Source of the DNA: Jimgerdemannia flammicorona
Taxonomy: Eukaryota
NCBI GenBank assembly: GCA_003990765.1
Contig: RBNJ01000332.1
Coordinates: forward strand, 1-32,834
DNA length: 32,834 nt
Reading direction: 5' to 3'
The notes below the pieces were generated by a model. It was not told where the DNA came from, did not search any database, and saw nothing but the letters and a program-made list of their open reading frames with translations. Within the stretch, counting starts at the first letter, position 1. Each line of letters opens with the position of its first letter. Shown here in pieces: positions 7,869-32,186 of the stretch. Position numbers and translations under genes: made by a program.

Positions 7869-7954
7869 GACCGAGAACATCCTCGTATTTCGTTACCTGG
7901 CACTTCTATACAAATTATTCCTAGATCACCGATATCAAACATCCCCAAAACAAA

Positions 7955-10472
7955 ATGCCGATAAACACCTCCAAAGGCAGCGAGGAAACGTTAAGGGATT
8001 CGACTGAGGTCGCCAAACCCAGCTTTGTTACCGAAAAGGAAGGCCCTGTTCAGGTCTCTCTCGAAAAGCTACAAATTGCTACCACCGCGATTTCGGCGGA
8101 GCGGACATTCCTGCAAGGCAGAGAATTGGCATTCGTGTTTATAGGGTAAGCTTAATAATGAAAGTCACCTCTCAGTATCTCCCGACCACATTGCTGATGC
8201 TTATTTTGCATCGTGTAGGCTCGCACTTTCTCTGTTTCTATCGGCGTTGGACTCGACAATAGGTAAGGAGGACTTTCGGAGAAAAAAAAAAAACAAAATC
8301 TTGCTTATTCAGCAATTAAATCCATACTTTCTGCAATCAAAGTCGCTACCGCGTTGCCCAAAATCGCCTCCGAATTCAATGGGTTGGACAGATCTAGTTG
8401 GGTTGTCACTTCTTACATCTTGACATATAATGTGAGTGTGCACCTTAAAGTTTTTGGATCGGCTCCAACACCCCGGACAAATACTAATCCCTTGCTGGCA
8501 AATTATATAATTATAATTGTAGGGTAATTATTCGGTAGATCCGTCGTCACTCTAGCACCCGCGATTTCCTGGGTTATGTCAACTGACGACTTCCCAATCC
8601 GTGTCCACAGCATTCCAACCTCTGTACAGCAAATTTTCGGACATCTTCGGTCGCAAGCCAACCCTCATGATCGGCATTGTCATTTTCTTGGTCGGAAGTG
8701 CCCTGTGTGGCGCTGCCACCAGCATGAACATGTTGTTCGGGTTCAGGGCCCTCCAAGGTCTTGGTGGTGCCGGTATGCATATCATTTGCCATGATTACGT
8801 TGCATTTCGTCGCTCCCAAGACTCTTGTTGATACTCAATTCTGATTTCTGCCAGGGGTTTTTTCGCTCGTCATGATTGTTATGTCGGAGATTGTTCCTCT
8901 TGAGAAACGTGGCAAATATAGCGGCATCATTAATGCTGTTTTTGTACTTTCCAGTGTATTCGGACCTCTCCTAGGAGTAAGTATGATGATCTAGCTCTAT
9001 CACACGCATCGTGGTATTTGATTCCACCAACCTCATAAATTTTCACCGTATCAATAGGGTGCCATCGCCGACCACGCCAACTGGCGTTGGATCTTTTACA
9101 TCAAGTAAGTGTCTCCTCAAATGGTGGATAGATACGTCAACGTTCGTCAACGTTGTGATCTACAGAGTCAGTGACCTAACCGATTTCCTCAAAACAGCCT
9201 TCCCATAGGTATCTGTGCCATGGCCACGATTTGGTATTATCTCAGATTCCCGAACCCCACCGGTTCGCTTCGCGAAAAGCTTCGGAGAGTCGACTTCCTG
9301 GGCACTTTTTTCATTGTTACCGCTACCACTGCGCTCTTGTTCGCTCTCGAATCCAGCAGCAGCCAATACCCCTGGAGCAGTACGCCCATCCTCTCGTGCC
9401 TTGCCCTCGGGGTATTCCTCTGCGGTTGCTTCATCCTTGTCGAGTGGAAAGTGGCCGCTGAGCCATTGATTCCACTTCGCTTGTTCAAGAATCGAACCAT
9501 TACTGCCGTATACATCAGTAACTGGATGTTTGGCACCGCTTTCTTTGGCATAATCATAAATCTACCATCCTTCTTTCAGGTATGTTCAACTTTTATCTCT
9601 ATCGGGATGAACTTTATTTCCCAAAATGCAACACTGACGACTATACGCATTAACAGATCGTACAAGGTTCCTCGGCCACCGCCTCCGGTCTCAAGTTGCT
9701 CCCTATACAACTCTCCATCGCCATCACCTCCGCCTTTTCCGGGTACCTCATTTCCCGCTTCGGCAGATACCTTTACCTCTACATCATCGGCACAACACTG
9801 ATGACCATTGGTATGGTTCTGATCAGCTTCTTCAGTGAGACCCTCTCTGATGGATCCCAGTATGGCTTTATGGTCATCACGGGGGTCGGTCTGGGTTTAA
9901 TCCTCTCCTCATCCATCATCGCCGTGCAGTCTGCCAGCGAAGTTCGCGACCTCGCCGTCGTTACCGGAACGGCCAATTTCATGCGTATTCTTGGCGGCGC
10001 CATCGGTGTCGCCATCTGCTCCTCCGCGCTACAGAGCCGCCTCGACACCATACTTCCGGCCATCCTCTCGCCGGACCTCGTCGGGCCCGCCAAGCAGTCC
10101 GCCACATTCATTCACAATAGCCTTCCTGCCAGTCTGCAGGCCGCCGTCATCCACGCGTATGTTGAGGGTTTCCAGCTCATGTACCACGTCTTGGTCGCGT
10201 TCACGGCAACCTCGCTCATCGCATCACTCTTCGTGAAGCATCATCCGTTGAAAAAGGCGCGGAGGAATCTGGCTCCCGATCCAACGCCGGTGCACCAGGA
10301 GATTTTGAAGGATGTGGAGAAGCAGGCGCCATTAGAAGACGAGAATGAGGTGGCTGGTGAACCGTCTCTTGTCTTGTCCAAGGTACCGACTAGTGATGCC
10401 ATCGGTCTCGGCACTATGGCGATGCAAACCGCTGTTGTGGGGAGTCCGGTTGTGTATGATACCAAAGAATAG
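7955..10472 (+). CDS. MFS drug:H+ antiporter (DHA2/14-TMS type), ~617 aa; exons 7955-8145, 8219-8262, 8343-8431, 8523 (1 nt), 8611-8772, 8855-8976, 9058-9104, 9198-9579, 9657-10472
   Basis: The spliced product has LALSLFLSALDSTIVATALPKIA, WVVTSYILTYNAFQPLYSKFSDIFGRK, FRALQGLGGAG, IVPLEKRGKY, FGPLLGGAI, WRWIFYINLPIG and EPLIPLRLFKNR, all typical DHA2 motifs. Exons total 1854 nt. Confidence 0.93.
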
Positions 10473-10862
10473 AAATTATAGACGCCCCACATGCTGGATT
10501 TAACATATTTAATGATCCCGTTTTGGTATATTGTTTGCCTATTACCTTTGTATATACATTGTTTACTAACATAATGTTCATTAACAAATTACTGTATCGA
10601 TCGTATTTCTATTTTGAATATTAAATAGGTTGTGTGTATATACTGGTTTAAAATAAAAATAAAAAATACGTCGAAAGTGAGGTTGTGGAAAATATATGTC
10701 AACAAAGACGTACATAAAACGTCATTGACGCCGCGGTGGGGTCATATCTGCACGCATGCCAGTCACGCTCCCTACCCACACACTCACTCAGGACAAACCC
10801 ACACTCTTTACAACCATCCTCCAGCCCCCTTTTCAACAACACAACCTCCCTCTACCAACACA

Positions 10863-13259
10863 ATGACCACCACACTCAAGAAACTACATTCCAAACACGA
10901 GGAGGAAGGTGCTATGTATACCGCCCTCCGCCACCTCGCAAAGTTCGCCGCCTGGGTTTATTTCCGTCAGATCAAGATCATCACCCACGAAGATGTGCCA
11001 AAGGCAGGCCCTGTGCTAATGTATGTACTTGTGGCTTCTTCTTTGGTGTAGTACGGTTTCGAGTGGCGCGATCTATGAACCTTCATCTCGGGATGTATCC
11101 AAAGTTCGTCTTGCGCCGCAAGGCTTCAATTGGCCCAATTGATTAGTAGTTCTAAAACAATACGCAATTATCTTCTCTCGAATCTCTACGTTCTGATACA
11201 TCCGCTATTTTCATCAGTGCTGGGTAAGTGTAGGTCAATTGGTTTGTGAAGGGAAGGATACTTATGCGTTGGAATCACAAGCTCTCCTTTTGATCGCCTG
11301 TATTCGAACTTTTATTTATACATTTTTTGCTCTACCTTCACCCACAGCACCCACGCCAACATGGTTCTCGATCCGGCCATGATCATCGTGTCCGCACCCT
11401 ACGACCGCCCCGCCCACTTCTGGGCTATGTCCAAGTTCTTCGCCAATCCCGTCGTGGGCTACATCTTCACCTCGGCCGGTGTCGTTCCCGTGGATGTGAA
11501 GAACCATCAAAACGATAAGCTGTTTGAGAGCACGTTCAAGACGCTGGAAAAGGGCGAGATCGTGGCTCTGTTCCCCGAAGGTACAGTGTGTGGTTCCTGG
11601 AGGGGGGGGGGTGGGGATAAGTCAAAGGATTTGATGTTTCAATCTTTCAACAAATTCTCACCCAACGTCGCTCGCTCGAAATCAATTCTCGCTCTATCCA
11701 CCTCCCATCATTCTCAGGTACGTCGTATACAGCCCCTCACATCCTCCCGATGAAGGATGGCCTCTCTTGGGCGGCCTTCGAGTACGCCAAGAAGCAGTCC
11801 GAGGGCAACATCCTCGAGGGTCCCGGGCGCGAGCCAATCGCCATCATTCCCGTGGGAATTGTTTACACCAATAAGAATAAGTGGCGAAATGAGGTGATTG
11901 TGGAGTGCGTATCTTGGGGAGAATTTTTTTGTGGGAGGAGGGAATGAGCTGGGATTTCATTTGTTGCCGAGAGAGTGCCTACGGCGCGGGGGGTGTGCCC
12001 ATATTACCCTCCATTACCCTAAACAACTTCTCCGACGCTCTATTGAAATAGATACGCGAAACCCATCCACATCGACTCCGTCATGCTCTCCGGCTTCATT
12101 GAAGATCCTAAGTCTGCGGTGAAGCGGCTGACAGCGCGGATCGTCGAGGAGTGTACGAGGATGACCATCAATGCGCCCGATTGGTCGGTTAGGAAGCGGA
12201 GAATGGGCATGCTTTATGAGCTTGTGAGCGCGCTCGTAGCCGATTTTGCTGGTTTGGTTTGGCTAAGTTTCGACTTTGTCTTTTTTTTTTTTTTTTAGGG
12301 ATACCGCACATGCTGCGAACACAGCACGGAGGATCTTGGTTGGAGATCGTAACGGTGTTAGATTGGAGGATTATGTAAAGGTGTCGCAAAGGTGGGTGTC
12401 CATCTTTTTTGTTTACATCGATAGGGACAATGTAAATGTTTGCCCATCTTTGAACAATCGAGTTATGGTCCAATTCTGGCATTGTGATTTCGATGATATA
12501 TCCAAAGGAATCTTATATCTGATATGTCTTGTCTCACACTTCTCAACCACCTTTTTTTTTTGTTTCAGCTTCACCAACATCTTCCATCCCACCAACGTCA
12601 CTAACAACCCCGCTCTCTCCACCCTCAAGTTCCGTCTCCGCACCTTAAATTCAACCCTCCATTTCCTCCAGCTTTCCAACGGCGATATCGCCCTCTACCA
12701 AAGCAACGGCCTCTCCCTCTCCACCGCCTGCCTCCTCCTCGCTACCACGACCCTCCGGCTCCTCCTCGAGCTCCCTCTCTTCCTCCCTGGCATCCTCTTC
12801 CACTCCCCCATGTACGTCCTCGGCAAGCTCGCCGAGACCAAGGAGCGCTACCAGGAGTCCGTCGCCCAGGACAAGGTTTTCATCGGCATCGCCCTCTTCC
12901 CGATCCTGTACGGCACCCTGTGGCTCTATACCTGGCGCCTGACCGGCTTCAGTCTCCTCGGCTTCATCCTCGCCACCGCACTCGTTCCCACTTTCGCCCT
13001 CTACCACATGACACTGCTTGACGAGCGCTACCAGAGCCTCAAAGATGTCGTCGCAGCGTGGCGCATGTTTGTTGCCGTGTCAGGCGGGGCGGAGCAGAGG
13101 AGGGAAGTCGAGGAGGTGGTCGAGCTGCGCAAATGGTGCGCTGAGGAGGTAAAGAAGGTGTTGTGGGAGGAGGCTAGGAACGGGAACAAGGACGCTGAGT
13201 ACCTCGTCGAATATGCCGCGCCGCTGTTTAGGGGCTTCCAAGAGCAAGAAAAGCAGTGA
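10863..13259 (+). CDS. Glycerol-3-phosphate/DHAP O-acyltransferase (fungal GPT2/SCT1-like), ~499 aa; exons 10863-11020, 11218-11223, 11348-11580, 11718-11904, 12052-12183, 12299-12391, 12569-13259
   Basis: Acyltransferase motifs THANMVLDP (Hx5D as in SCT1/GPT2), GVVPVD, LFPEGTSY, IIPVGIVY and TINAPDW are present, followed by C-terminal transmembrane segments. Exons total 1500 nt. Confidence 0.88.
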
Positions 13260-13507
13260 TTTTTTAATCTTTTTGATTTTCTGTTTTTGAGGGACTTAGA
13301 TCTCTGTGATTCTCAGTTCCTTCCCATCACCATCATTGTCGCATTTCCATCCTTGTTCAAGGAGCGTGTGCGTACATTCCATGTAATTATACCTCACACA
13401 TTTATGTCAGATCTCTTGAATATATGGATGATATTACGACTGGTTTTCCTCATAAGCCACAAGAGAATAAAGTGTGCCGTCCTCAAAGGTCGCTTCCAAG
13501 TCACAGA

Positions 13508-15166
13508 ATGCGACCGTCCCGTTTACCCATCACTTTCCGCCTTCTTGTCCGCCGCTTCTCTGCCGTCACAAGCCCGCCCCCCAGCCACTACGATGTAATT
13601 GTCATCGGGGGTGGCCACGCCGGCTCCGAAGCCTGCGCCGCCGCCGCGCGAACTGGCGCGCACACCCTTCTCGTCACCCAGAATCTGGATACCGTAGGCG
13701 AAATGTCGTGCAACCCGTCGTTTGGCGGGGTGGGGAAAGGTGTGCTCGTCAGGGAGGTGGACGCGTTGGATGGCGTGTGTGGGAAGGTATCGGGTAGGTT
13801 GGGGTAAAGGAGTACGTCATGTTGTGCGGCGAGAGGCGATTATGGCGTGAGGGCCATTTGGGACTGTTGGTCGTGTGTTCCTCACACTTTTCTTACTTTT
13901 TCTGCAAAGACCTCGCTGGTATCCAGTTTAAGGTCCTTAACCGTTCCCGCGGCCCGGCAGTCTACGTATGTATCATACAACCTAACTCTCAAACTTTCTA
14001 CCTATTCTCTGGCCACTTGCACCTCGATCTCTCACACCATTTCCATTCCACAAATAATCAGGGCCCTAGAGCCCAGATTGATCGTAAACTCTACAAGCAC
14101 CACATGCAAGAAGCTTTGCGATCGTACCCGAACCTGACGCTACGGGGGGCGAGTGTCGCCGATCTGGTGATCGCGCCTTGGGACGAGGCCGGCGTTGGGG
14201 AAGGAGGAACCATGATGAAGACGGGGACATATGGGAGAGTCAGGGGAGTGAAACTGGGTGAGTTTTAGGGAAGGACTGTTTGGAAATTGAGGGCGAGGTA
14301 TTTCGCAACCGGGGAGAACGATGAATTTGTGTCATAGATCCCATCCCCGATCTTTACCTTTCCCAATATTTGTATACTCTATTAGATTCCGGCGAGACAG
14401 TCCTCGCTCCAAACGTCGTCATCACCACCGGCACATTTTTGCAAGGCGAAATTCACATCGGTAACATTTCACCTGATTTGGGGCCAAGGCTGGAGAATTT
14501 TTTTGTTTATGCCGCATGATCAAATACAACGTGTATCCTATCTTCAGGCCAGAAATGCTATCCGGCTGGTCGTATGGGAGAGAACCCTTCCATCGGCCTC
14601 TCAAAATCGCTACAGTTGGCTGGGTTCCGGCTCGCGAGGTTGAAGACGGGTAAGAAGTGTGTGTGAGATAATTTCGAGGGTGTTGTGGGTTGGTCTCCTA
14701 CGGGGCGAGGGCAGCGCGCTGGCAGGAACACGATGAATAGTCTTACGCTCCCCTTCCGTCTTCACATCGCACATATAACGAACAGGCACGCCCGCGCGCT
14801 TAGATGGACATACAATCAACTATGAAGGACTTATACAGCAACACGGCGAGCTGCCCGCATCGCCGTTCTCGTTTTTGCATGATAGTGTGCCTTTCGAGGT
14901 ACGACTGACATGATGATGGCTTGTGTTGGTAATTTTGTGTAGAACAATTCAAATCTTTTTTCACGGACTCCGTCGCCAATTCCCAATCCAACAGTCCCAG
15001 CAGATCGTCTGCCACCAGACCCGCACGACTCCGCAGACACACCAAATCATTACGGATAATCTGCACCAGAGCATACACATCCGGGAGACGGTCAAGGGAC
15101 CGAGGTGAGAGCATGTATGATTTCGCTCATTAGTGATGGGCTGTTGTAGTCGACCATGTGCTTACG

Positions 15167-15200
<34 letters not shown>

Positions 15201-17189
15201 CTCTATTAAACTTGATATGTTATAGGTACTGTCCGTCGCTTGAGGCCAAGATCATACGGTTCAGGGAGAAGCAAGGACACGTTGTATGGCTAGAACCGGA
15301 AGGTATCTAGTAGTTATTGTTCCTGCGTTTCGAGAACAACAGGTCTGTTTATATATTTTGGCAATGGTAACCATAATGCCCTTCCTCGCCCAGGTCTTGA
15401 CAGCCATGTGATATACCCCAACGGTATCTCCAACAGCATGCCCGAGGACATCCAGATCAAGCTACTACGCTCGATACCGGGCCTGGAGAATGTGGAGATG
15501 ACACGCCCAGGTTCGTTTGTCGGATTGGTTGAATTGTGTAGAAATATATTGTTCCTCTCGCTGACCCAAACCACACATTTCCTCCCTTAAAAGCCTACGG
15601 GGTCGAATATGATTACGTCGACCCTCGCGAGCTCCGCCACACTCTCGAAACCAAACGTATCCGCGGCCTCTTTCTCGCGGGGCAGATCAACGGTACGACG
15701 GGATACGAGGAGGCAGCTGCGCAAGTACAATATGATTCCATTTCTTGTGGCCTTCCCGTCTTATCTGCCCTGGTCTCCTTCGTACCTCGATTTGATCAAT
15801 CCCGTCTGGTCTGTGTGCATCATAACCAACAGGGTATCGTTGCCGGTATCAACGCCGCCCTCTCGGCGCGCCATCTACCACCATTCATACTCGATCGCGC
15901 GGATGCTTACATCGGTGTGCTGATCGACGACCTGATCACCAAGGGCGTCGAGGAGCCGTACAGGATATTCACATCTAGGTCGGAGTACAGGTTGTTGTTG
16001 AGGGCGGATAATGCGGATGTGAGGTTGACGCGTAAGGGTAGGTACTTGTCTTGTGTGTGTGTGTGTGTGTGTGGTTGTGATATTCACATCGTTTATGGGA
16101 TGCTATCTTGGATGGCAAAATGACTTTGATTGTTGCGTTTTACGTCTGGGAATCTGAAACCATTACGTCGTATACAGGCTTCGAGGCAGGCTGTGTGAGC
16201 CCACATCGGTACCGGCATTTCCAGCAGATGGAATCACAGCTGCTCCGTGCACTGGATACGCTCGAGTCGGTGTGCATGTCCCCTGACAAATGGTCGAGAC
16301 ACGGGTTCACCATAAACGATGACGGCATCATACGGAGGTGAGCCTGCTTCTCTGGGAGCTGATTGAGAGAGTGCAGAAAACGCAGATTAAGATAGTAACG
16401 CTGATATATATGCTTCATGCATTTCGATATCGAAAAGCGGTATGGACATGCTACGGTTGCCAAACGTCAAGGTCGAGGATTTCTTAGAGGTGGCGCCAGA
16501 ACTCCGGTGCTTTGAAAAGACAGTGCAGGACCGGGTCATGATTGAAGGTCAGTGGATTTGATGAAATGGAGGTAATAGCGTTGGTTGCTTTTCTTTGATC
16601 GATCCATGACAAAGTATTTATTTGTGCGATTTCCAAATCTGGAAATAGGCCTTTACAAACCTTACCTGCTGAGACAAGAAGTCGAGGCAGAGTCACTCAG
16701 GAGGAATGAGAATATTTTGCTGAGTGATGATATCGATTACGACAGGTTGCATGTGTTGCTTGTTTTGCTTCCGTAGTTTTGTATAGATGACGTAGAATGC
16801 CATCTACGATAGTACTAACGCTACTCGGTTTTCAACGCGTACAATCAGTATCCACAACCTATCTAGTGAAGTCAGGCAGAAACTCAATTTGATTCGACCT
16901 GCCACCCTTGTATGGCCGGTTTGATTTTGACTTCGTCCTTTTTTACTATTATAATTAGATTTATCATTTGCATTTGGTTCCGTTTATTTATTGGGAGGAG
17001 GGAGAGGGAAGTTATTTTGTGATTATGTATATTGTGTCGCCGCTAACGGAATCAATGTTTTCTATTAAATTTCTCCAGGGAGCGGCTAAACGTATCGAGG
17101 GGATGACTCCTGCTGGTGTTCTCGTTTTGCTTAGATACGCGAAGCACAAGGGAGAGAAGTATGGGGACGAGGAGGGACTGTTCGTATGA
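13508..17189 (+). CDS. MTO1: Mitochondrial tRNA U34 modification enzyme MTO1 (GidA/MnmG family), ~668 aa, 16 exons: 13508-13793, 13910-13965, 14062-14257, 14386-14460, 14548-14649, 14786-14898, 14995-15104, 15226-15302, 15394-15510, 15594-15724, 15833-16037, 16178-16337, 16438-16547, 16649-16745, 16849-16909, 17079-17189
   Basis: Motifs include [78 protein letters not shown] and [22 protein letters not shown]. The N-terminus [18 protein letters not shown] is Arg-rich and presequence-like. Exons total 2007 nt. Confidence 0.96.
15169..15200 (+). repeat. Intronic poly-T tract (~32 nt)
   Basis: Read directly, in MTO1 intron 7. Confidence 0.9.
16052..16073 (+). repeat. (TG)n microsatellite
   Basis: About 11 TG units in MTO1 intron 11. 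Confidence 0.9.
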
Positions 17190-19856: not shown

Positions 19857-22523
19857 AGTTCGTGGTTGTGGAATCAATCGTTGGGTACTTTGCTGAGCAA
19901 AGAAGGGAAACCGTGGATTTAATTGCCGAATCCAGATGTTTTGGCCTTCAATTCAATTTTATAATGGCATCATTCCGGCGACGATATGGCTGCATGTGGA
20001 TGATCGTCAGTCCTATGCCGAGTTCTTGTTTGTGGGTAGTAGGTAATCGCCATGTGATTCTTTACCTGGGCCCCCGATTGTATACAAACTAGATGCTTCC
20101 TAACTCCAAACAGCTACCCCACAGTTCCACGCCAAACCATAGCTAGCACAGCGATCCTTTGATGTCACTTTCTAAACTGGTTCATGTCGTACTATTGGCA
20201 GCGAATGGTCGGGCGCATCCGCCGATTGGCTGTGAGATCGCCTTCTCGACTTCAAATCGGATGCCGAGCCGAGGTCAACCTTACGGAAGGAGTGGACCCA
20301 CTTAACCCCACGCTGTTTCCCACAAGAAAAATACTATACATACTTGGGAGGAAAGGCTCGAACCCTCGCCAAGATCCGTTTGTGGAGACCTCTGGTCCAC
20401 ACCTCGCACGGTGTCGCTTACTGAGGCGAGCACATTTAATTTCATTTCCTTTCCAGGTTGTCCGGCGAAGGAAAAAAACAAAACAAAGTTTAGGGTCCCA
20501 ATTCCGAATGTTTCGGTTCCATCTTGCTGCGCCATGATCCAATGCGACCATGTGGAACCTGGGCACGAGCCACAAGGGTCCTCAACGTCATTCGCCCCAA
20601 ATTCTGGTCTTGTGACAGGACCCGCATCCGGCGTCGACGTTGTCTACCGAGATTAACCCCACTCTTGCTTGCTTGTTCATTGCTACAACTCACCAATTGG
20701 AAACTCCGCTGAGCCCGGCGAGCCGATACACCATACACATTCCACTACTGAATTCATGGAGCACACATCACGGCCTCCCTGGTCTCGTTCACTCGAACGT
20801 CCTCGCGTCACCCTCATCACAACCGTCGCATTTCTACCTGTCCGTCGAGTTCGAATCCAGTCATGTATGCGAACGCCGATGCATGTCGGGATGAGTTCCT
20901 CGCAGCATGCCGTTGACGGGCGAGATGGCGTCACGCCCGTTTCACCTGCTCGTCTCACCTACTTATCCCGCACGTTCAGTCAGCGTCGTCCTCTCGACCG
21001 CCACCGAAGACCGTACAGGAGTACGTGGAGGCTCTACTGACGGAGAGAGGGATAAAAGTAGGGATAAAAGTCAGGGTGCGTCGTTATAGGCGGTTTTAGG
21101 ATTGCTTGGCGGGCAGATGATGGCCAATTCTTTGGATTTCATGGCTCATGGATTGTTTTGCAGTCCCTGATCAAGTACCCCACACGCGATCGAGCTGGTC
21201 ATCAATATTGCTGACTGGAATGATCCACCATTGGACGTGCAGGTTTGTGTCGGTGAGATAAGCGTTCGCTGTGTTGCAATCACGTGTCTGTACAGACAAC
21301 TTTTGTGGAACGGTGATGCTTGCGAGCGCGTTCTACAAACGCGTCGACGGAAAGGAAATAAAGGAGGCGTATGATAACCTGGTCAAGCAGGCGGCGGCGA
21401 GGAATGACATTGTAAGTTGGTCGTCATAGTAGTGGGTTGTCTTGTTGGGTTATAATGTTGCGCTATTTGCATTGCTATCTCTTGGTTTATAAGCATTTGT
21501 TGCGTGTTGATCCACAAACGCGGGAGTGTAGTATCATGTATCGAGGAGACTATCGTTCGTGGAGGGTAAGCTGAATTTCCGGGCCTCGATATCTTCATTA
21601 CCGTCATCTATTTTTTGCGGCCTACCCCTCACCCACCCTACTTCACCCCACCAGGGCACCCAATACACCATCAAGACGTATCCGACCTCGGACGTGATCA
21701 AAGGCCAATACTCGCGTCATGGCCTCATTAATCAGGGCTTCTACTCGAGCCCTTCTAAATCTCCGAACCAACGAAGTCATCGATATCTGCTCGTGAGTCA
21801 TCGACGAGCCGCACATGGGCGGCTATCATATGTGTATTAGGATCAAGACACCACGTGGGAAATGGCACTTGGTCGGACAGCACAGGCCGCAAGATGCGAT
21901 GAAGATCAAACTGAGTAAGTTTATGGTAGGTGAAAATTGATTGAGAGTGGAAGTGGAAGAGAGAAGGGGGGAGGGGGGGTTGCTGGATGAACTCAGCAGT
22001 GTTATGTCTTTCTTGTTGTTTTTCTCGAGGTTATGTGTATTCTTTTCCCATTGATCATGCTTGATTTGCTTTCATCGATGCCGACAGTGCCCAGATGTGT
22101 CCGTCTGCGCCTTCGAAATCACCGTAAGTGCACACATTGTCGCATGAAAAAAAAAAAAACCCCCCCCCATGGCTGAAAGACCTCGAGGGGACTGTGGCTA
22201 AGGCACCGGCTGAGGCGGTGGTATAGTTGGAGAAGGAAAGGGAAGCGGCAAGACCTCCGCTGTCAAGCACGATGGAAAGGGCTGTCCCACAGAATATCAA
22301 CGTCCGCTACCACTCACTCGCCGGCATCCCGACGCTGTCCCCGGGAGCTTTAAATCATCGGATGGACGGAGAACAACATTGTCATGGGCGAGATTGAGTA
22401 GATGGCTGTAAAAATAGAGTGAATTTTATTATTTGAAATTTATCTGCACCTCTAGTTGGCTATTGGAGTATGTGTCTGTACATGAACTATCTATCACACC
22501 CTCATCGATGGTGTGTCAAACCC

Positions 22524-23626
22524 TTAATGATCCTTCTCACCCTTCCCCCAAGTCACCTTATTTGACTTAACGTCAAACCATTTCGTTCCCCTCATCAGTG
22601 CCACCCAAGCCATCCATGCGACGCTCACTACGAAAATTCCCTCGACAACCCTCAACACATCCCGCATTCCCCGCACATCCACCCCTGCTTTGAATAACGA
22701 TCCGCTGCCCGCGAACAGCGCCTCGATCCCGCCAATTATAATCAGCTCCCTTAGCATCTCGCGCCACGGCACGTTTACGTGCTGATCGAATAGCCACCCG
22801 AAGCACGTCAGGCTCCAGAAGATGAGTACGCACATGGAGTTAACGGCCACCGGCTCCATCAGTTTGTCCCCGAGCAGTACTATGGCCGTGGCACCGAGAA
22901 GGATGACGAAGTGAACGAACACGTACGGGTTCACCCAGCCGGGGACAATATGGTCATACTTGGCTGACGGAAGCTCCTTGGGGATCACCGGGATCTCGGA
23001 CAGCAGTCCCGTGCGAGGAGTATCATCGTGCCAACCAGGGCCGTAGAAGATTACCTTGAACTTGTTGACTAGACCGCGAGTGGACCATGCGGTACGGAGG
23101 ATATGGAGGAGGTGATGTGTTTGGATTGTAATGGGGTCGAATGTGTTGATCAGGTGGGTGAGGCCAAAGGCAACGTGCTCTTGGTCCTCGGGGTGAAGAG
23201 TATTAGGAGGAAGTTTTTCGAGGGCAAAGGTACCTAGAGGTTTATGAATGTGTGAATGTCAAATTTTGCCGGCATGGAAATGAAGCGTACAGTAAGCTTT
23301 GGGTTGAGGCTTACCGAACATAATGTCCCAGATTATAAGTGTTTCAGAGTAGTTCTTGTCAATACAATAGGGATTACGACCGTGATGGACACGATGGGCC
23401 GATGGAGTGTTGATAATGTATTCGAAGAAGCCGAGATTACTGATTACTTCAGTGTGAATCCTGCATTGAGTATCATTCGATGCTGTTAATATCCACCACG
23501 TTGTGCTACCATTATCAGTTAGAGGGAAGCACATTACCATATTGAAACAGAGTGTTGAACTGGCTATGGGCGACAAACATTGGCGGTGGTAGGACAAGGG
23601 TAAAATATCCAGGACGTATATACCTG
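22524..23626 (-). pseudogene. AGMO: Alkylglycerol monooxygenase (AGMO/TMEM195, fatty-acid hydroxylase superfamily), 5'-truncated with frameshifts; exon remnants ~23626-23538, 23460-23315, 23233-22524
   Basis: Translation gives QVYTSWIFY..LVLPPPMFVAHSQFNTLFQY(W)IHTEVISNLGFFEYIINTPSAHRVHHGRNPYCIDKNY..LIIWDIMFGTF...FGLTH.INTFDP...IFYGPGW, matching AGMO. There is a frameshift after WIFY and one base missing at the Y/W splice junction. The N-terminal His boxes are absent. Confidence 0.85.
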
Positions 23627-24796
23627 ATCTATTAGATCATTTCCAGTCCAATAACCTTTCTTAGCTTTTCCAATTTCAAGTAGACAACAAGCTTCTCTTG
23701 AAGGCTTTGGACTCTTCATATCTTTATATTGTTTTTCAGATATAGCCAGTCTTCCAATAGTATCCAGTAGAAAATCACTAACCATTATACTAGCACCTCT
23801 ACTTTTTTTTCTTAGAGGAAATTGTCCTTTTAGTCTCCATCTAAAGTTTAGATCATCATTAGTATTAAAAGTAGTCTCATCATGTGTCACTAGAATATGT
23901 TGTTGTCCAAGAGAAATATTATGTTGCAATGGTTGAAAGTCTTTATCATATTGAACCATAAATGGTTTCCAGTCAGTCATCTGCTTTAAAAATTATTCAT
24001 GAGATACTTTAACATCATCTCTTTCATGACCATCAACATAGAGTCCTTTTCTATATCTACTGTAAGTATAACCCATCTTTAGCATCCATCTTCTTGCTGT
24101 ATCTTCATGAATTTTTATAGATTCTGCTAATATTGAAAAAATCTCTTCTAAATGTTCTTTAAGAGATCTTGGAATAGTAGTAAACTTATTATTTTCTAAA
24201 TAAGTTTTAACTGCAAGTTTTATATTTTTATCTTCAAGAAGGTTTTTCTTCTTAGTATATCTTCCTTGCTGAGAAATAGGAAGAGTTCTATTGTTTATCC
24301 AATCTTATATCCATATTCTTAAAAGCTTTGCATAATATGAGCCTTTGTCAATACTTTCTGCAATTAGTTAACTAGCTTGAGAAGTACTTCTATTATTATT
24401 TCTAAATATCATATATTGTGATATATGATGATATTTTAGAATATAACTTAGAGGCAGATTCTCTAAACTTTTTAAGTAAACTTTAAGTGTAGTAATGTGA
24501 GATTTCCAACTATTATCAGCTTTTTTGTCTTTATCTTTATCTTTATATTTCTTATCATCTTCTTCTCTCTCATTATCATCATCTTCTCTCTCATTATCTT
24601 CTTCTTTATAATCTTTTTCATCTTCATCTTTGTCTTCTCTATTATCTATATATTATAATTATAATTATAATTAATATATATTATTAATATTATTAATATG
24701 TATATAATAATATTTATCTATAATATCTTCCTCAAGTTTACTTTTTTGATATCTTAGAACTTGTAAGTGCTGGTTTTGTTTAGGTAGTTTTGGCAT
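23627..24796 (-). mobile_element. Decayed DDE transposase (IS630/Tc1/mariner-like fungal type), C-terminally truncated
   Basis: Reading from the ATG at 24796 through several in-frame TAA/TGA stops gives LPISQQGR, EDTARRWMLKMGY (HTH-like), LYVDGHERDDV, LVTHDETTFNTNDD, KSRGASIMVSDFL and GYWTGNDLIDQ. The region is AT-rich and CpG-poor. Confidence 0.8.
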
Positions 24797-24849
24797 TTTG
24801 TTATAACTAAAATATAAATTTAATAATTTAGAGAGATGTAAAAGAAAGT

Positions 24850-25036
24850 CAGAATATGATAGGACATAATAGATGAAACAGGACAGAGATATGACAGAGA
24901 CAGAATAGGATAGATGAGATAGAATGGAATAAGACAGAATAGATAAGACAGGATAAGATAGATGAAATAATAGATAAGACAGAACAGAATGGACAGAATA
25001 GGATAGATGAGATAGGATAAGATAGATGAGATAGAA
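24850..25036 (+). repeat. Degenerate purine-rich pentamer array (GATAG/GACAG/AATAG)
   Basis: For example GGACAGAATAGGATAGATGAGATAGGATAAGATAGATGAGATAG, lying upstream of the transposase ATG. Confidence 0.75.
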
Positions 25037-25187
25037 TATATAAATATTTCTCTATTTATTTCTTAGAAAAAAAAAAAAATGCATATTACATACTTTGGTT
25101 CTGTAAGATATCAAGAAGTTTGTTGACAATTTTGACAGATAAATGATCTTATAGCTGAGTTAGAAATAAAATGTAGATGTCATGGAC

Positions 25188-25494
25188 CTGTACTATTTGG
25201 GCACTATTTGGAGATCATGCACCCAAATAGTATTTGGCCTTAAATCAATTACTAAATTGTTCCCCTTTATCAAATTCCCCTTCAAGCCAGCCAGTTTCAC
25301 GATTTGGCCTTAAATTGATAGAGAACTTGGTAAAGGAGAACTCGGCAATATCAGTGAAAGAGAACTCTATAAGATCAGTAAACCTTCATGAAGCTTTACC
25401 ATTTGGGTGCAACATTTGGGAATTATGCACCCAAACAGTGTCTGGCTTTAAATCGATTACCAAAATTATTCTCCTTAGCCAAATTCCCCTTCAA
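25188..25494 (+). repeat. ~205-bp repeat unit, ~1.5 tandem copies
   Basis: The block CATTTGGG..ATCATGCACCCAAATAGTATTTGGCCTTAAATC..AAATTCCCCTTCAA recurs at ~25188 and ~25393, and again at 31302-31800. Confidence 0.8.
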
Positions 25495-26433
25495 CAGTAC
25501 TCCAGTAAAGTCAAGTCAAAACTGGAGACTGGTTCCCATGCTTTGATCAAATCATTTGAGCTTCATTTGAATCCCATAGATCTTCCCTTTGGAACAGAGC
25601 TTTCCAGGATCTTTGAAATCATTCTCACCAAGTTTAACGAGATTATAACCCCTCCTCGTGGAGATATATACTAAAATATCAAGGAGATACCTCAAAATAT
25701 ACTACTGTGGGAAACTAGCCCATATTTTGAGAACCACCAAGGATCCCCAAGAACAAACGCCTCCCAAAATTCGCCAGAGACCTCAGCTACAATCTATCCG
25801 AAGCTAAAGACCATTCCCTAATTCATTGACAAGTTATTCAAGTTCTTCCAAAACCCTGATCAAAACTTCAAGTCTAAATATCTCTATAACCAAGAGATAT
25901 TTCAAGAAACAGAAATAAGGATAATTTTCTAGTAATTTGAGGCTATCTCCATGCCAAGTTTCAAGAAGATAGCTCTATTTCTTAGAAATTTCATGCTGCC
26001 TCTTTCTATAATAAGGAAATCAGTCAATATAGAGAAATCCGAATTTGGTTTGTCACCAAATCAAGCCATCCAAGCCTATCTGGATCAGTTAAGGCTGTAA
26101 TCTAGTCTTACAGATCTTGGACTCAATATTTCAATAAATAAAAATCTGTAAAATAATCAAATATAATAAACTATATCTAAAATAAATAAAGATATAATTA
26201 TTAAAAAATAAAAAAAAAATAAAAATTGGTTCTCTCTAAGATTCAAACTGGATCTTAAACCTAGGATAGCCAGAGCCTCATGACCCTTACTCAATAGCCT
26301 AACAGATAGACTGGGGAACTATTTTAATTATTTTCTGTCCAATTTTGATTATAACTATTTGAAATTATTAGAAATGACATCATTTATCAATATGGAGCAG
26401 TTATTACAGAAGACTTGCATTCTCTTATACTCA

Positions 26434-29400
26434 ACTTTCTTTAGCATTGCCAGAGTAAGTAGAGAGAGCTTCAGTTTTTAGAGTAGTCTAGAGAAGGGAG
26501 GTTAGTGTGATTATCAATTTTTTGTCACTGGGAGAAGAGAGGTTGGTACATTTATTGATTTTCATCACTAGATTGACTCTTACTCATATTCTCATATTCC
26601 TTTAGACTTCCTCTAGTATTGCCAGAGTAAGTAGAGAGAGCTTTAGTTTTGGAGTAGTCTGGAGAAGGGAGGTTGGCACAGTTATCAATTTTTGTTACTA
26701 GAGAAAGGAGGTTGGCATGGTTATCGATTTTTGTCACTAGAGAAGAGAGGTTGGTGCAATTATTAATTTTTGTCACTAGAGAAGAGAGGTTGGTACAGTT
26801 ATCAATTTTTGTCACTGGATTGACTCTCACTCACATTCTTATATTCCTTTAGACTTCCTTTAGTATTACCAGAGTGAGTAGAGAGAGCTTTAGTTTTGGA
26901 GTAGTCTGGAGAAGGAAGGTTGGTGTGGTTATTGATTTTTGTCACTGGAGAAGGGAGGTAAAGGAATATAAGAATGTGAGTAAGAATTAATCCAGTGATA
27001 AAAATCGATAACTGCACCAACCTCTCTTCTCCAGTAACAAAAAATCGATAACTACACCAACCTTTCTTCTCCAGACTACTCTAAAACTGAAGCTCTCTCT
27101 ACTCACTCTGGCAATACTAGAGGAAGTCTAAAGGAATATGAGAATATAAGTGAGAGTTAATCCAGTGACAAAAAAATTGATAACTACATCAACCTTCCTT
27201 CTCCAGTGACAAAAAATCAATAACTGTGCCAACCTCCCTTCTCCAGTGACAAAAAATTGATAACTGTGCCAATCTCTCTTCTCCAGTGACAAAAATCGAT
27301 AATCATACTAACCTCCCTTCTCCAGTGATAAAAATCAATAACTGTGCCAATCTCCCTTCTCCAGACTACTCCAAAACTGAAGCTCTCTCTACTTATTCTG
27401 GCAATACTAGAGGAAGTCTAAAGGAATATGAGAATGTGAGTGAGAGTCAATCCAGTAATGAAAATCGATAACTGTACCAACCTCTCTTTTCCAGTGACAA
27501 AAAATCAATAACTATGCCAACCTCTCTTCTCCAGACTACTCTAAAACTGAAGCTCTCTCTACTCACTCTGGCAATACTAGAGGAAGTCTAAAAGAATATG
27601 AGAATGCAAGTGAGAGTTAATCCAGTGATGAAAATCGATAACTGTACTAACCTCTCTTCTCCAGTGACAAAAAAATTGATAACTGCACCAACCTCTCTTC
27701 TCCAGTGACAAAAAATTGATAACTATACCAATCTCTCTTCTCCAGTAACAAAAAATTGATAACTGCACCAACCTCTCTTCTCTAGTGATAAAAATTGATA
27801 ACCATGCTAACCTCCCTTCTTCAGTAACAAAAATCGATAACTGCACCAACCTCTCTTCTCCAGACTACTCCAAAACTGAAGCTCTCTCTACTTACTCTGG
27901 CAATACTAGAGAAAGTCTAAAGGAATATAAGAATGTGAGTGAGAGTCAATCCAGTGATGAAAATCGATAACTGTGTCAACCTCTCTTCTCTAGTGACAAA
28001 AAATCGATAACCACACCAACCTCTCTTCTACAGACTACTCCAAAACTGAAGCTCTCTCTACTCACTCTAGTAATACTAGAGAAAGTCTAAAGGAATATGA
28101 GAATACAAGTGAGAGTTAATCCAGTGATGAAAATCAATAACCACACTAACCTCTCTTCTCCAGTGACAAAAAAATCAATAACCATGCCAACCTCCCTTCT
28201 CTAGTGACAAAAATCAATAACTGTGCCAACCTCCCTTCTCCAGTAACAAAAATCAATAACTGTACCAACCTCCCTTCTCCAGACTACTCCAAAACTGAAG
28301 CTCTTTCTTCTCACTCTAGCAATACTAGAGGAAGTCTAAAGGAATATGAGAATGTGAGTGAGAGTCAATCCAGTGATGAAAATTGATAACCATACCAACC
28401 TCTCTTCTCTAGTGACAAAAAATCAATAACCATACCAATCTCCCTTCTTCAGTGATAAAAATCGATAACTACACTAACCTCTCTTCTCCAGACTACTCCA
28501 AAACTGAAGCTCTCTCTACTCACTCTGGCAATACTAGAGAAAGTCTAAAGGAATATAAGAATGTGAGTAAGAGTCAATCCAATGATGAAAATCAATAACC
28601 ATGCCAACCTCTCTTCTCTAGTGACAAAAAATCAATAACTATGCCAACCTCTCTTCTTCAGACTACTCCAAAACTGAAGCTCTCTCTACTTACTCTGGCA
28701 ATACTAGAGGAAGTCTAAAGAAATATAAGAATGCGAGTGAGAGTTAATCCAGTAACAAAAATTGATAACTATACTAACCTCTCTTCTCCAGTGACAAAAA
28801 AAATCAATAACCACACCAACCTCCTCCCTTCTCCAGTGACAAAAAATCAATAACCATGCCAACCTCCCTTCTCCAGTGACAAAAAATTGATAATTGCACC
28901 AACCTCTCTTCTCTAGTAACAAAAATTGATAACCATATCAATCTCCCTTCTCCAGTGATAAAAATCAATAACTGCACTAACCTTCTCTCTTCTCTAGACT
29001 ACTCCAAAAACTGAAGCTCTCTCTACTTACTCTGGCAATACTAGAGGAAGTCTAAAGGAATATGAGAATGTGAGTGAGAGTCAATCTAGTGGAAAATCGA
29101 TAACCATGCCAACCTCTCTTCTCTAGACTACTCCAAAACCTGAAGCTCTCTCTACTTACTCTGGCAATGCTAGAGGAAGTCTAAAGGAATATAAGAATAT
29201 AAGTGAGAGTCAATCCAGTGATGAAAATCGATAATCACACCAACCTCTCTTCTCCAGTGATAAAAAATTGATAACTGTGCCAACCTCTCTTCTTTAGTGA
29301 CAAAAAATTGATAACTATGCCAACTTCTCTTCTCCAGTGACAAAAAATCAATAACTGTGCCAACCTCCCTTCTCTAGTAACAAAAATCAATAACTGTATC

Positions 29401-30460
29401 AACCTCTCTTCTCTAGTGATAAAAATTGATAACTGTGCCAACCTTTCTTCTCCAGTGACAAAAATCGATAACCATACCAACCTCTCTTCTCTAGTGACAA
29501 AAATTGATAACTGTGCCAACCTCTCTTCTCCAGAGACAAAAATTGATAACTGCACTAACCTCTCTTCTCTAGACTACTCCAAAACTAAAGCTCTCTCTAC
29601 TCACTCTGGCAATACTAGAGGAAGTCTAAAGGAATATGAGAATGTGAGTGAGAGTCAATCTAGTGATGAAAATCGATAACTGTGCCAACCTCTCTTCTCT
29701 AGTAACAAAAAATTGATAACTATACCAACCTCTCTTCTCCAGACTACTCCAAAACTGAAGCTCTCTCTACTCACTCTGGTAATACTAGAGAAAGTCTAAA
29801 GGAATATGAGAATGTGAGTGAGAGTTAATCCAGTGACAAAAATTGATAACTGCACCAATCTCCTCCCTTCTCCAGTGACAAAAAATTGATAACTACATCA
29901 ACCTCTCTTCTCTAGTGACAAAAAATCGATAACTGTACCAACCTCCTTTCTCTAGTGATAAAAATTGATAACCATGCCAATCTCTCTTCTCTAGTAATAA
30001 AAATCGATAACCACACCAACCTCCTCCCTTCTCTAGACTACTCCAAAAACTGAAGCTCTCTCTACTTACTCTGGCAATGCTAGAGAAAGTCTAAAGGAAT
30101 ATGAGAATGTAAGTGAGAGTCAATCCAGTAACAAAAATCGATAACCATGCCAATCTAGACTACTCTAAAACCTGAAGCTCTTTATACTTACTCTGGCAAT
30201 GCTAGAGGAAGTCTAAAGGAATATTAGAATGTGAGTGAAAGTCAATTCAGTGACAAAAATTGATAACCACACTAACCTCCCTTGTTTAGTGATGAAAATC
30301 GATAACTCTGCTAACCTCTCTTCAGTGATGAAAATTGATAACCATGCCAACCTCTCTTCTCCAGACTGCTCCAAAAACTGAAGCTCTCTATTTACTCTGG
30401 CAATGCTAGAGGAAGTCTAAAGGAATATATGTAATAAGAGAATATAAGTGAGAGTCAACC
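26434..30460. repeat. Complex satellite made of a 39-bp A unit and a 91-bp B unit; minus arm ~26434-26958, plus arm ~26959-30460
   Basis: A is approximately GTGACAAAAATCGATAACTGTGCCAACCTCTCTTCTCCA. B is approximately GACTACTCCAAAACTGAAGCTCTCTCTACTCACTCTGGCAATACTAGAGGAAGTCTAAAGGAATATGAGAATGTGAGTGAGAGTCAATCCA. By hand count the plus arm has ~15 B and ~53 A units. Confidence 0.95.
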
Positions 30461-30612
30461 TCAGATGGCTCTGGAAATGATACCTATGATATGATAAGCC
30501 CCTATCTGTAATATGATGAAGCCTCCACCTGTGATATAACAAAGCCCCCCCCATAACAAAGACTGCACTCTGCTCTTCTGTTATTCCCCTATTATATATA
30601 TATATCTTTACA

Positions 30613-31083
30613 ATGAGAAAGTGGATTCATTCTGCTAAACCAATCCAATGTAAAAAGAAGAAGGAGAGATATCATACTACCAGAATGGTTAAAAAGGAAG
30701 AAGATATCAATAGTTTGAAAGAAGATATTATCCTTTACCAGTTAGTTCTAAAAAAAGCTTGCCAAAATGGTGCAAAAGAAGATAACCAGACCATCAAGGC
30801 TTGTACAGAGTCAATCAAAAAACTATAAGAGAAACTACATATACTTTTGCCTGAAGATAATCAATCTGCTCCTGGTTCACCTTCATCTATTGCAACTGTT
30901 GCAACTGAAATAGTCATAGATTTTGCACCTCTATCTCCAGATAGAACATTTTCTTACAGATTGAAGTATGAGAAAAAGGAGCATTATCTAAGAGATATTC
31001 TACAATATGTTATAGATGCTTGGTTAGCTGATCTTCCTCTACCTCAATAGCTCTTAGCTAGTTTACAATATAGACAAAAGTGA
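30613..31083 (+). pseudogene. Stop-interrupted ORF (~156 codons) of unknown function within the repeat block
   Basis: ORFs 30613-30828 and 30847-31050 share one frame. They are separated by TAA (30826-30828) and followed by TAG (31048-31050), both one C-to-T change from Gln codons. The final TGA is at 31081-31083 and a (TA)n tract lies just upstream of the ATG. Confidence 0.55.
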
Positions 31084-31115
31084 TTTATATAGCCTAAGAT
31101 CTATAAGACTGAATT

Positions 31116-31313
31116 GTGGCCTTAAATCAAAGGCCAGTAACAGAGGCCAGTCACTCTAATAGTGGCCTTAAATCAGAGGCTAGTAGCAGAGGCCAGTCAC
31201 TCTAATGGCAGCCTTAAATCAGAGGCCAGTAGCAGAGACTAGTCACTTTAATGGTGGCCTTAAATCAGAGATCAGTAGCAGAGACCAGTCACTCTAATAA
31301 CAGCCTTAAATTG
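31116..31313 (+). repeat. 46-bp minisatellite, ~4.3 copies
   Basis: GTGGCCTTAAATCAGAGGCCAGTAGCAGAGGCCAGTCACTCTAATR starts at 31116, 31162, 31208 and 31254, with a partial copy at 31300. Confidence 0.92.
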
Positions 31314-31800
31314 ATTACATATCAAAATTGTTCCCTTTTGCTGAAATCCCCTTCAAGCTAGCCAGTTTCACAATTTTGATCTAAAATTGATAGAGAATGA
31401 TAAAGAGGAACTTGGCAAGAACAGTGAAAGAGAACTCTGCAAGATCAGTGAAGCTGCACCATTTAGGTATATCATTTAGGGATCATGTGCCCAAATAGTA
31501 TTTGATCTTAAATCAAACTTAGTGAAGGAGATTTAAGGCCAAAATTGTGAAACTGGCTGACTTGAAGGAGATTTCAGCAAAGGAGAACAATTTGGTAATA
31601 GATTTAAGGCCAAATACCATTTGGGTATATAATCTCCAAATGGTGCATCTAAATGATACAGCTTTACTAATCTTGCAGAGTTCTCTTTCATTGTTCTTAT
31701 CAAGTTCCCCTTCACTAAGTTCTTTATTGATTTAAGGCCAAAATTATGAAACTAGCTGGCTTGAAGGAGAATTTGACAAAGAAGAATAATTTTGGTAAAT
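31302..31800. repeat. ~205-bp unit in direct (31302-31530) then inverted (31530-31800) orientation
   Basis: CCCCTTCAAGCTAGCCAGTTTCACAATTTTG on the + strand is mirrored by CAAAATTGTGAAACTGGCTGACTTGAAGG and CAAAATTATGAAACTAGCTGGCTTGAAGG. Confidence 0.82.
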
Positions 31801-31803
31801 GAT

Positions 31804-31990
31804 TAGTGCTCCGAACGAATGGAGTTGATCCGGATGAGATTCGATTCAGATTCGTCATGTGATGGATTCGAATTAACTCGGATTGGTCTCATGATCTGAT
31901 CTGGATTGATCTGGATTGATCCGGATTGACCCATCCAGATTGACCCATCTGGATTGACCCATCTGGATTGATCCATTCAGATTGAAATCT
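31804..31990 (+). mobile_element. Putative DNA-transposon terminus with subterminal GATC(C/T)GGATT / GACCCATCTGGATT repeats
   Basis: There is an abrupt switch at TAGTGCTCCGAACG followed by dense short repeats, an architecture reminiscent of hAT ends. The partner end is not in the window. Confidence 0.4.
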
Positions 31991-32186
31991 TTGGTGACGT
32001 CACCCTTTCTTTTGTTCATTTCGCTCTTGTTTTTTTTTTCTGCTGCACTTTGGTGATATCACCCTTTCCTTTGTTCCCTTCTTTTCTTTGTTCTTTTTCT
32101 TTGTTCTTTCCTGCCACATCACGAGCAAACAAAACAGCAGCCCTAAATTCGTATGTTGGTCCAGTCTACTCATTTTTCACCCTGCA

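Follow-up and report, generated by a model that had tools for sequence, protein, structure and literature searches.

A probable one-nucleotide exon between two ordinary-sized introns in a fungal major facilitator superfamily transporter gene

The stretch of DNA analysed here (hereafter the window) is contig RBNJ01000332.1 over its full 32,834 nucleotides (nt), and it carries on its forward strand a multi-exon transporter gene whose exons 3 and 4 are separated by 179 nt that appear to contain two introns and, between them, a candidate exon of one nucleotide, G8523. Nine exons with G8523, joined according to the RNA joints described below, give an open frame of 617 codons (Table 1). Judged by its profile matches and by the conserved motif region around ...GRK, the predicted product is a protein of the major facilitator superfamily (MFS), namely a DHA2/TRI12-like drug:H+ antiporter. 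When single exons were scanned against Pfam, exon 4 scored 42 bits against MFS_1 (cut-off 33.4) and matches to Sugar_tr were also obtained, while the TRI12 and C-terminal MFS_1 matches fell just under their cut-offs because the exons were scanned singly. Homologues of the transporter carry PF06609 together with PF07690.

Exon 3 ends in phase 0 with ...TAT AAT (8431) and is followed directly by GTGAGT (8432–8437), while the stretch closes with CACAG at 8610 and exon 4 opens with CATTCC at 8611, where one base is needed ahead of CA to read Ala-Phe-Gln-Pro. The first-pass annotation of this DNA had pointed to a clash of phase between the two exons, and the sequence bears this out: a direct join of 8431 and 8611 is out of frame and meets a stop after 22 codons. 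Every splice element that the annotation had placed in the stretch was found at its given position, with TTGTAG (8517–8522), G (8523) and GTAATT (8524–8529) in the middle and the motifs CTAAT (8484–8488) and CTGAC (8583–8587) to either side. The stretch divides as 91 + 1 + 87 = 179 nt, and the claim that both parts are of normal size for an intron holds, the upstream half (intron A, 91 nt) and the downstream half (intron B, 87 nt) standing against 73, 80, 82, 81, 93 and 77 nt for the remaining six introns in the gene that have RNA support. Both acceptors conform to YAG (TAG for intron A and CAG for intron B), and each half contains a single CTRAY motif, whose A lies 35 nt (intron A) or 24 nt (intron B) from the 3′ end. 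Among the RNA-supported introns CTRAY occurs in four of six, once in each and 10–21 nt from the acceptor, and is absent from the other two. Each flanking intron has its own donor, branch motif and acceptor and is of viable length. A second AG-N-GT arrangement, AG-T-GT at 8435, sits within the intron A donor.

Transcript sequences were taken from four sequencing runs (X1–X4), which were available as contigs and not as raw reads and were aligned to positions 7900–10500. X1 and X2 bear one organism label and come from separate samples and studies; X3 and X4 are root metatranscriptomes that cover downstream exons only and have no bearing on the junction. The X1 and X2 contigs represent spliced transcripts, since seven stretches of the gene are skipped in them, six with GT..AG ends. 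At the seventh, 8431 is joined to 8610 in a 1880-nt contig of X1 (depth 12.3); the 178 nt left out have GT..CA ends, and the cut can be moved by 1. In the X2 contig (211 nt, depth 2.23) one C stands between 8430 and 8610, which is the synonymous change T8431C, followed by the same extra G; given this variant, X2 does not stem from the same molecule or strain as X1. In both contigs the messenger RNA (mRNA) consists of exon 3, exactly one G, and exon 4, so that the junction predicted for complementary DNA in the first-pass annotation is present in the spliced contigs of two samples. Over the aligned exonic pieces (about 1.7 kb, 8218–10500, plus a 239-nt piece) X1 shows 0 other letters and 0 gaps relative to the assembly. 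Among the contigs there is no transcript in which donor A is joined directly to acceptor B with loss of the G.

Two other splice sites were considered and rejected. A GTGTGC donor at 8436, which would give N-V-T-F, would add four bases to the mRNA where the contigs show one, and an in-frame acceptor at 8555, which would bring an 18-residue insert, is absent from the RNA contigs. The contigs also record differences from the window at 8431 (T8431C, X2), 9856 (C9856G, X4), 10116 (A10116G, X2 and X3) and 10272 (G10272A, X3), X1 being identical. The change at 8431 is the sole variant close to the junction, and none falls on 8523. These single-base differences indicate at least two strains or alleles of the organism in public data.

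To relate the mRNA to the genome, all excisions that turn the pre-mRNA of positions 8343–8772 into the observed sequence were enumerated, pairs being ordered and limited to GT/GC..AG excisions no shorter than 30 nt. Two single excisions, and no others, yield the mRNA: GT..CA (8432–8609) and TG..AG (8433–8610). Among pairs, the sole workable GT/GC..AG combination is 8432–8522 with 8524–8610, in either order, and no G other than G8523 lies between an AG and a GT in a place that leaves workable halves to either side; no nested, stwintron-like GT/GC-AG pair giving the mRNA emerged from the enumeration. On this route the base kept in the mRNA is not contiguous in the genome with either flanking exon. 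Because the only GT/GC-AG route to the mRNA is the intron pair around G8523, two separate excisions are called for, as the first-pass annotation had supposed.

The internal AG-G-GT site exceeds chance. In 20,000 dinucleotide shuffles of positions 8438–8604, a bare AGGGT leaving both halves at least 45 nt long arose 1243 times (6.2%). A complete site, with a YAG acceptor, a donor agreeing with GT[AG][AT]GT in at least 5 of 6 positions and a CTRAY motif 10–45 nt upstream, arose in 16 of the 20,000 shuffles, and among natural 179-nt windows drawn from the same 32.8 kb (overlapping, both strands) it was present in 13 of 9270; these figures understate the true chance somewhat, because the criteria were set after the site had been seen. 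An origin of introns A and B by tandem duplication was also considered and was rejected, the likeness between the halves being matched or beaten in 127 of 500 shuffles.

Comparison with homologous proteins places the G within a conserved reading frame. With the G included, the protein aligns ungapped across the junction with all 44 homologues of a first search, and 37 of 40 homologues in a second alignment are collinear there, in agreement with the earlier claim that the G restores the usual DHA2 spacing. A search of 1.84 billion representatives returned a 78%-identical fragment that covers the last exon only (P0045), and the nearest full-length relatives are 42–44% identical over the last exon and 47–48% over the whole model. 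Among the relatives, P0047 belongs to Endogone sp. FLAS-F59071 and both P0195 and P0046 to Jimgerdemannia flammicorona, with Mucorales next in the list. The three models of the 40 that are not collinear are exactly these three, and all of them break right after YILTYN. P0047 is without the eight residues that follow, a gap that would fit a predictor pairing the phase-0 donor only with the next in-frame AG. P0195 and P0046 read through for 62 and 66 codons, respectively, and then enter exon 4 in the wrong frame. Their read-through (TVLQQNF...) matches the window's own read-through frame (...TSVQQIF...), and the intervening length in both would therefore be 2 mod 3, as in the window. Moreover, the 60th read-through codon of P0195 (Ser) is aligned with AG|C of the window, which implies an intervening length of 179 nt, the same as in the window; for P0046 we infer 191 nt. 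At the protein level, back-translation of the Jimgerdemannia read-through permits an AGGGT at nt 90 (Arg-Val-Pro), the window's G being at nt 92, and likewise permits one at nt 133/134 in P0195 and 145/146 in P0046 (Glu-Gly-Leu).

In a quick maximum-likelihood tree of 28 rows, which the mis-modelled segments may affect, the window protein forms one clade with P0047, P0195 and P0046 (Shimodaira–Hasegawa-like approximate likelihood ratio test support 100), and its sister is a Mucorales clade with collinear models. The phase clash seems, as far as these protein models reflect it, to be common to the window/Endogone/Jimgerdemannia clade, and the failure of all three clade-mates at the same junction makes an assembly slip peculiar to the window unlikely.

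Some further features of the relatives were recorded. P0047 has 24 in-frame residues at the FFQ|IVQ junction (the position of intron 8) and P0195 has an insertion after ...GAAG (the position of intron 5), both of which look like retained introns. A more distant homologue, P0124, is without 15 residues over the same motif (W-V to G-K-F-S-D), which may reflect a missed small exon or a bad model. A metagenome scan whose query was the open reading frame (ORF) reading out of intron B on into exon 4 yielded 27 loci, and the best 13 of these, which were inspected, include no orthologous DNA; 12 of the 13 have a G+C content of 62–71% and no stop upstream of the match, and look bacterial. In a search for ORF-type fragments of relatives spanning exon 3 and intron A there was no match. 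One metagenome locus (L012:430–520, on a contig of G+C 0.50) is a distant fungal paralogue whose one intron (62 nt, GT..AG, phase 0) separates ...AQPL from YGKLSDIFGRK and lies five codons downstream of the junction studied here.

We consider it very likely that G8523 is an exon of one nucleotide lying between introns of 91 and 87 nt, and we are equally confident that such an exon would be constitutive and that introns A and B would be ordinary U2-type GT-AG introns. Together with the CA that opens exon 4, G8523 would form an Ala codon and so restore the frame between the phase-0 donor and the phase-1 acceptor. Short fungal introns are probably recognised across the intron, in which case A and B would each be recognised alone by intron definition and the exon between them could do without signals. 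At 8521–8522 the acceptor AG of intron A would lie inside the bases with which U1 pairs at the donor of intron B, so the two sites would not be engaged together and the excisions would be sequential. Either order could work: removal of A first would create the junction ...AATG|GTAATT, a donor for B in the manner of recursive splicing with one base left behind, and removal of B first would leave TTGTAG|GCATTC, an ordinary acceptor for A. A G would suit both roles: exons preferentially end in G ahead of a donor and commonly begin with G behind an acceptor, an argument made for Fusarium CYP621A (PMC12940212). Pairing donor A directly with acceptor B drops the G and brings the stop 22 codons on.

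Several observations weigh against this interpretation, besides the late choice of the shuffle criteria. First, the G kept in the mRNA may be G8432, G8523 or G8610, which the mRNA alone does not distinguish. Second, two of the splice signals depart from those of the other introns: the donor of intron B, GTAATT, is the weakest signal, with T at +5 where seven other donors (the six verified ones and that of intron A) have G, and the branch motif of intron A lies 35 nt from its acceptor, as against 10–21 nt in the four verified introns that bear CTRAY. Third, no contig in the four runs extends across 8432–8609, and hence no splicing intermediate or lariat is represented, although contigs would drop rare forms. 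Finally, the evidence from orthologues is at the protein level, the P0047, P0195 and P0046 models have other errors (retained introns elsewhere), and P0195 and P0046, being of one species, do not count as independent.

The alternative that survives best, which we nonetheless regard as very improbable, is an assembly error in which a G is missing either at the end of exon 3 (AATG|GTGAGT) or at the start of exon 4 (CACAG|GCATTC), so that a single GT-AG intron of about 179 nt is removed and the internal AG|G|GT is coincidental. At either place the error would amount to a GG collapsed to a single G, and all four runs consist of spliced or transcript contigs, with no independent genomic reads among them. 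Longer introns probably exist in this genome, since a GT..AG intron of 151 nt is predicted by homology in a neighbouring NIPA gene, and the doubled length is only mild evidence. Against an error stand the agreement of the X1 contig with the exonic pieces of the assembly, the roughly 0.1% chance of a coincidental complete site, and the fact that the P0047, P0195 and P0046 models, from separate assemblies, break at the same junction, with the same 2-mod-3 offset in Jimgerdemannia; a repeated slip is very unlikely.

A single non-canonical intron of 178 nt, either GT..CA (8432–8609) with G8610 kept or TG..AG (8433–8610) with G8432 kept, is in our judgement very improbable. These are the two single excisions that produce the mRNA, and the first is how the aligner itself reports the joint; moreover, no two-step intermediate is among the contigs. 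To our knowledge, however, neither GT..CA nor TG..AG is an accepted border class of spliceosomal introns, and the six other joints of the gene are all GT..AG. Such an intron would also leave unexplained both the complete signals in mid-stretch (16 of 20,000 shuffles) and the doubled length, where a route bordered by GT/GC-AG exists. It is extremely improbable that the G was added by editing, polymerase slippage or a contig-assembly artefact to a true, frame-shifting splice at 8431|8611: although the data are contigs and not raw reads, two contigs, which differ in sample and study and one of which has a linked variant, agree on the single G, it restores a frame collinear with 44 of 44 homologues, and we know of no G-insertion mechanism for fungal nuclear mRNA.

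If G8523 is accepted as an exon, its age comes into question. We tentatively suggest that the one-nucleotide exon might be an old, selectively kept trait of an Endogonales-type (Mucoromycota) transporter clade, predating the split of Endogone, Jimgerdemannia and the window's organism, with a nearly conserved length of the twin introns (179 nt here, against predicted lengths of 179 and 191 nt), and that the frame-shifting skip form might serve as a regulated off-switch for the transporter, an idea already raised in the first-pass annotation. Were such a clade-wide, ancient origin true, early-diverging fungi would have their first example of a one-nucleotide exon, and splicing that obligatorily takes two recursive-like steps around a single base would be shown to last over long evolutionary time.

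Table 1. Exons and introns of the transporter gene (window positions, with the evidence for each).
Feature	Position	Strand	Evidence
Exon 1 of the MFS transporter gene, starts at ATG	7955..8145	+	3′ end from RNA joint 8144/8145 to 8218/8219; ORF opens at ATG 7955
Intron 1, 73 nt, GTAAGC..GTGTAG	8146..8218	+	RNA joints X1 and X2
Exon 2	8219..8262	+	Within X1 contig
Intron 2, 80 nt, GTAAGG..TCAAAG	8263..8342	+	RNA joints X1 and X2
Exon 3, phase-0 end after ...SYILTYN	8343..8431	+	Sequence, RNA contigs, frame check
Half-intron A (upstream), 91 nt; donor GTGAGT, CTAAT at 8484, acceptor TTGTAG	8432..8522	+	Part of the sole GT/GC-AG route to the observed mRNA
Proposed one-nucleotide exon, G, first base of Ala codon GCA	8523..8523	+	One extra G in mRNA; no other G between AG and GT leaves workable introns to either side
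Half-intron B (downstream), 87 nt; donor GTAATT, CTGAC at 8583, acceptor CCACAG	8524..8610	+	Signals and route enumeration
Exon 4, phase-1 start (CA of GCA), encodes FQPLYSKFSDIFGRK...	8611..8772	+	X1 and X2 resume here after the joint; Pfam MFS_1 E = 7.4e-11
Intron 5, 82 nt, GT..AG	8773..8854	+	RNA joint X1
Exon 5	8855..8976	+	X1 contig
Intron 6, 81 nt, GT..AG	8977..9057	+	RNA joint X1
Exon 6	9058..9104	+	X1 contig
Intron 7, 93 nt, GT..AG	9105..9197	+	RNA joint X1
Exon 7	9198..9579	+	X1 contig; Pfam TRI12 E = 4.4e-5, 22.6 bits (curated cut-off 23.2, just missed)
Intron 8, 77 nt, GT..AG	9580..9656	+	RNA joints X1, X2 and X4
Last exon, including stop codon	9657..10472	+	X1 contig; Pfam MFS_1 E = 5.7e-8, 32.5 bits (cut-off 33.4, just missed); ORF end 10472

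Within the transporter gene, intron 2 contains a run of about 12 A at 8284–8296, outside the coverage of the RNA contigs. Elsewhere in the window, a gene for a NIPA-type magnesium transporter lies on the minus strand at 100–2450 (PF05653, E = 2.8e-41 and 2.3e-13 on two ORFs), and its homology-predicted intron is in phase 1 (1656 down to 1506); none of the RNA-supported introns in the MFS gene is as long. Other genes of the window were assigned by Pfam on single ORFs (10900–16150, plus strand; 22500–24000, minus strand). They comprise an acyltransferase (PF01553, ORF 11250–11750, plus strand), a GidA/MTO1-type protein distributed over three or more ORFs (13310–16120, plus strand) and a fatty acid hydroxylase with an alkylglycerol monooxygenase C-terminal domain (22527–23636, minus strand). 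An A+T-rich block occupies 24001–32000, with a G+C content of 0.26–0.38 as against about 0.45–0.53 elsewhere in the window, and the GC skew is strongly negative at about 27–30 kb; the ORFs in the block have no Pfam match, and repeats or degenerate transposons may make up its sequence.

With one-base exons the ability of the spliceosome to define an exon reaches its lower limit, and the only nuclear cases found in the open-access literature are APC11, CYP621A of Fusarium and a list of 13 genes in Coprinopsis. The G8523 case adds a new gene family, probably another fungal phylum, and transcript support from two samples; in the open-access literature no one-nucleotide exon was found in an MFS transporter or in Mucoromycota. 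The near-equal, normal-sized introns A and B offer a clean substrate for studying the successive use of an acceptor and a donor that a single base separates. Gene predictors cannot model a one-base exon, and the three closest public models are wrong at this junction, one by a deletion and two by a shift out of frame, so that transporter catalogues of these root-associated fungi hold damaged entries. A signature for further searches is a pair of phase-incompatible adjacent exons around an intron of double length.

In Fusarium CYP621A, an AG|G|GT one-nucleotide exon occurs in 20 orthologues with read support, and it is described by its authors as the second case overall and the first in fungi (Nelson and Syed, 2026; PMC12940212). 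Both it and the present case concern a nuclear fungal gene with the pentamer AG|G|GT and a transcript-confirmed junction, a G that lies within a conserved motif and mends a phase clash between the adjacent exons, an apparent intron about twice the usual length, and automatic models of orthologues that are wrong at the site. The two differ in gene (a P450 as against an MFS transporter), in lineage (Ascomycota as against, judging by the closest homologues, Endogonales/Mucoromycota), in the place of the G in its codon (middle base of a Gly codon as against first base of an Ala codon), and in the evidence for conservation, which comes from the DNA of 20 orthologues there and from protein-level hints here.

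The first-pass annotation had cited Arabidopsis APC11 as a known example of a one-nucleotide exon. The case is real: in Arabidopsis thaliana the one-base exon is an A, proven by base substitution and cDNA (Guo and Liu, 2015; PMC4674806). As a picture of the field it is out of date, CYP621A and the 13 Coprinopsis genes having since been reported. APC11 resembles the present gene in having a constitutive one-base exon between two GT-AG introns that is essential to the frame and was missed by annotation. It differs in being a plant gene with a different base and unequal introns (the A lies 333 nt into an annotated intron of 422 nt), and in that its exon is substitution-proven, where the case for G8523 is drawn from sequence and transcripts. 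For Coprinopsis cinerea, a long-read annotation lists 13 exons of 1 nt in 13 genes, and omitting micro-exons creates premature stops there (PMC12230235). This too is a fungal nuclear genome with 1-nt exons; it differs in being that of a basidiomycete and in coming as a genome-wide list, the available passages describing no single case and no transporter. Mitochondrial one-base exons have also been reported, in placozoans and in Ophiostoma.

The first-pass annotation had further likened the stretch to fungal stwintrons or stepwise splicing. A stwintron is defined by an internal intron that splits the donor, branch or acceptor element of an external one (PMC9024468, PMC12403724), and the available text of the former paper contains no mention of micro-exons that we could find. 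The likeness stands insofar as two consecutive splicing reactions would take place in one intervening stretch of a fungal gene. It is otherwise loose, since no splice signal of either intron is broken up by the other: the signals of introns A and B are intact in the primary transcript, without any nesting, and the stretch 8432–8610 is not a stwintron. Recursive splicing, as at the ratchet points of Drosophila and vertebrates or with the zero-nucleotide exon of Cryptococcus neoformans BOT1 (bioRxiv 10.1101/224170), shares with the present site an adjacent acceptor and donor within a seemingly single intron, stepwise removal, and a first step that creates or exposes the second site. The site is not an instance of zero-nucleotide recursive splicing, for the AG at 8521–8522 is followed by GG and not by GT, and the G is kept, although in action it would be ratchet-like. 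In recursive splicing as described, AG|GT leaves nothing in the mRNA, whereas here AG|G|GT leaves one base on which the reading frame depends.

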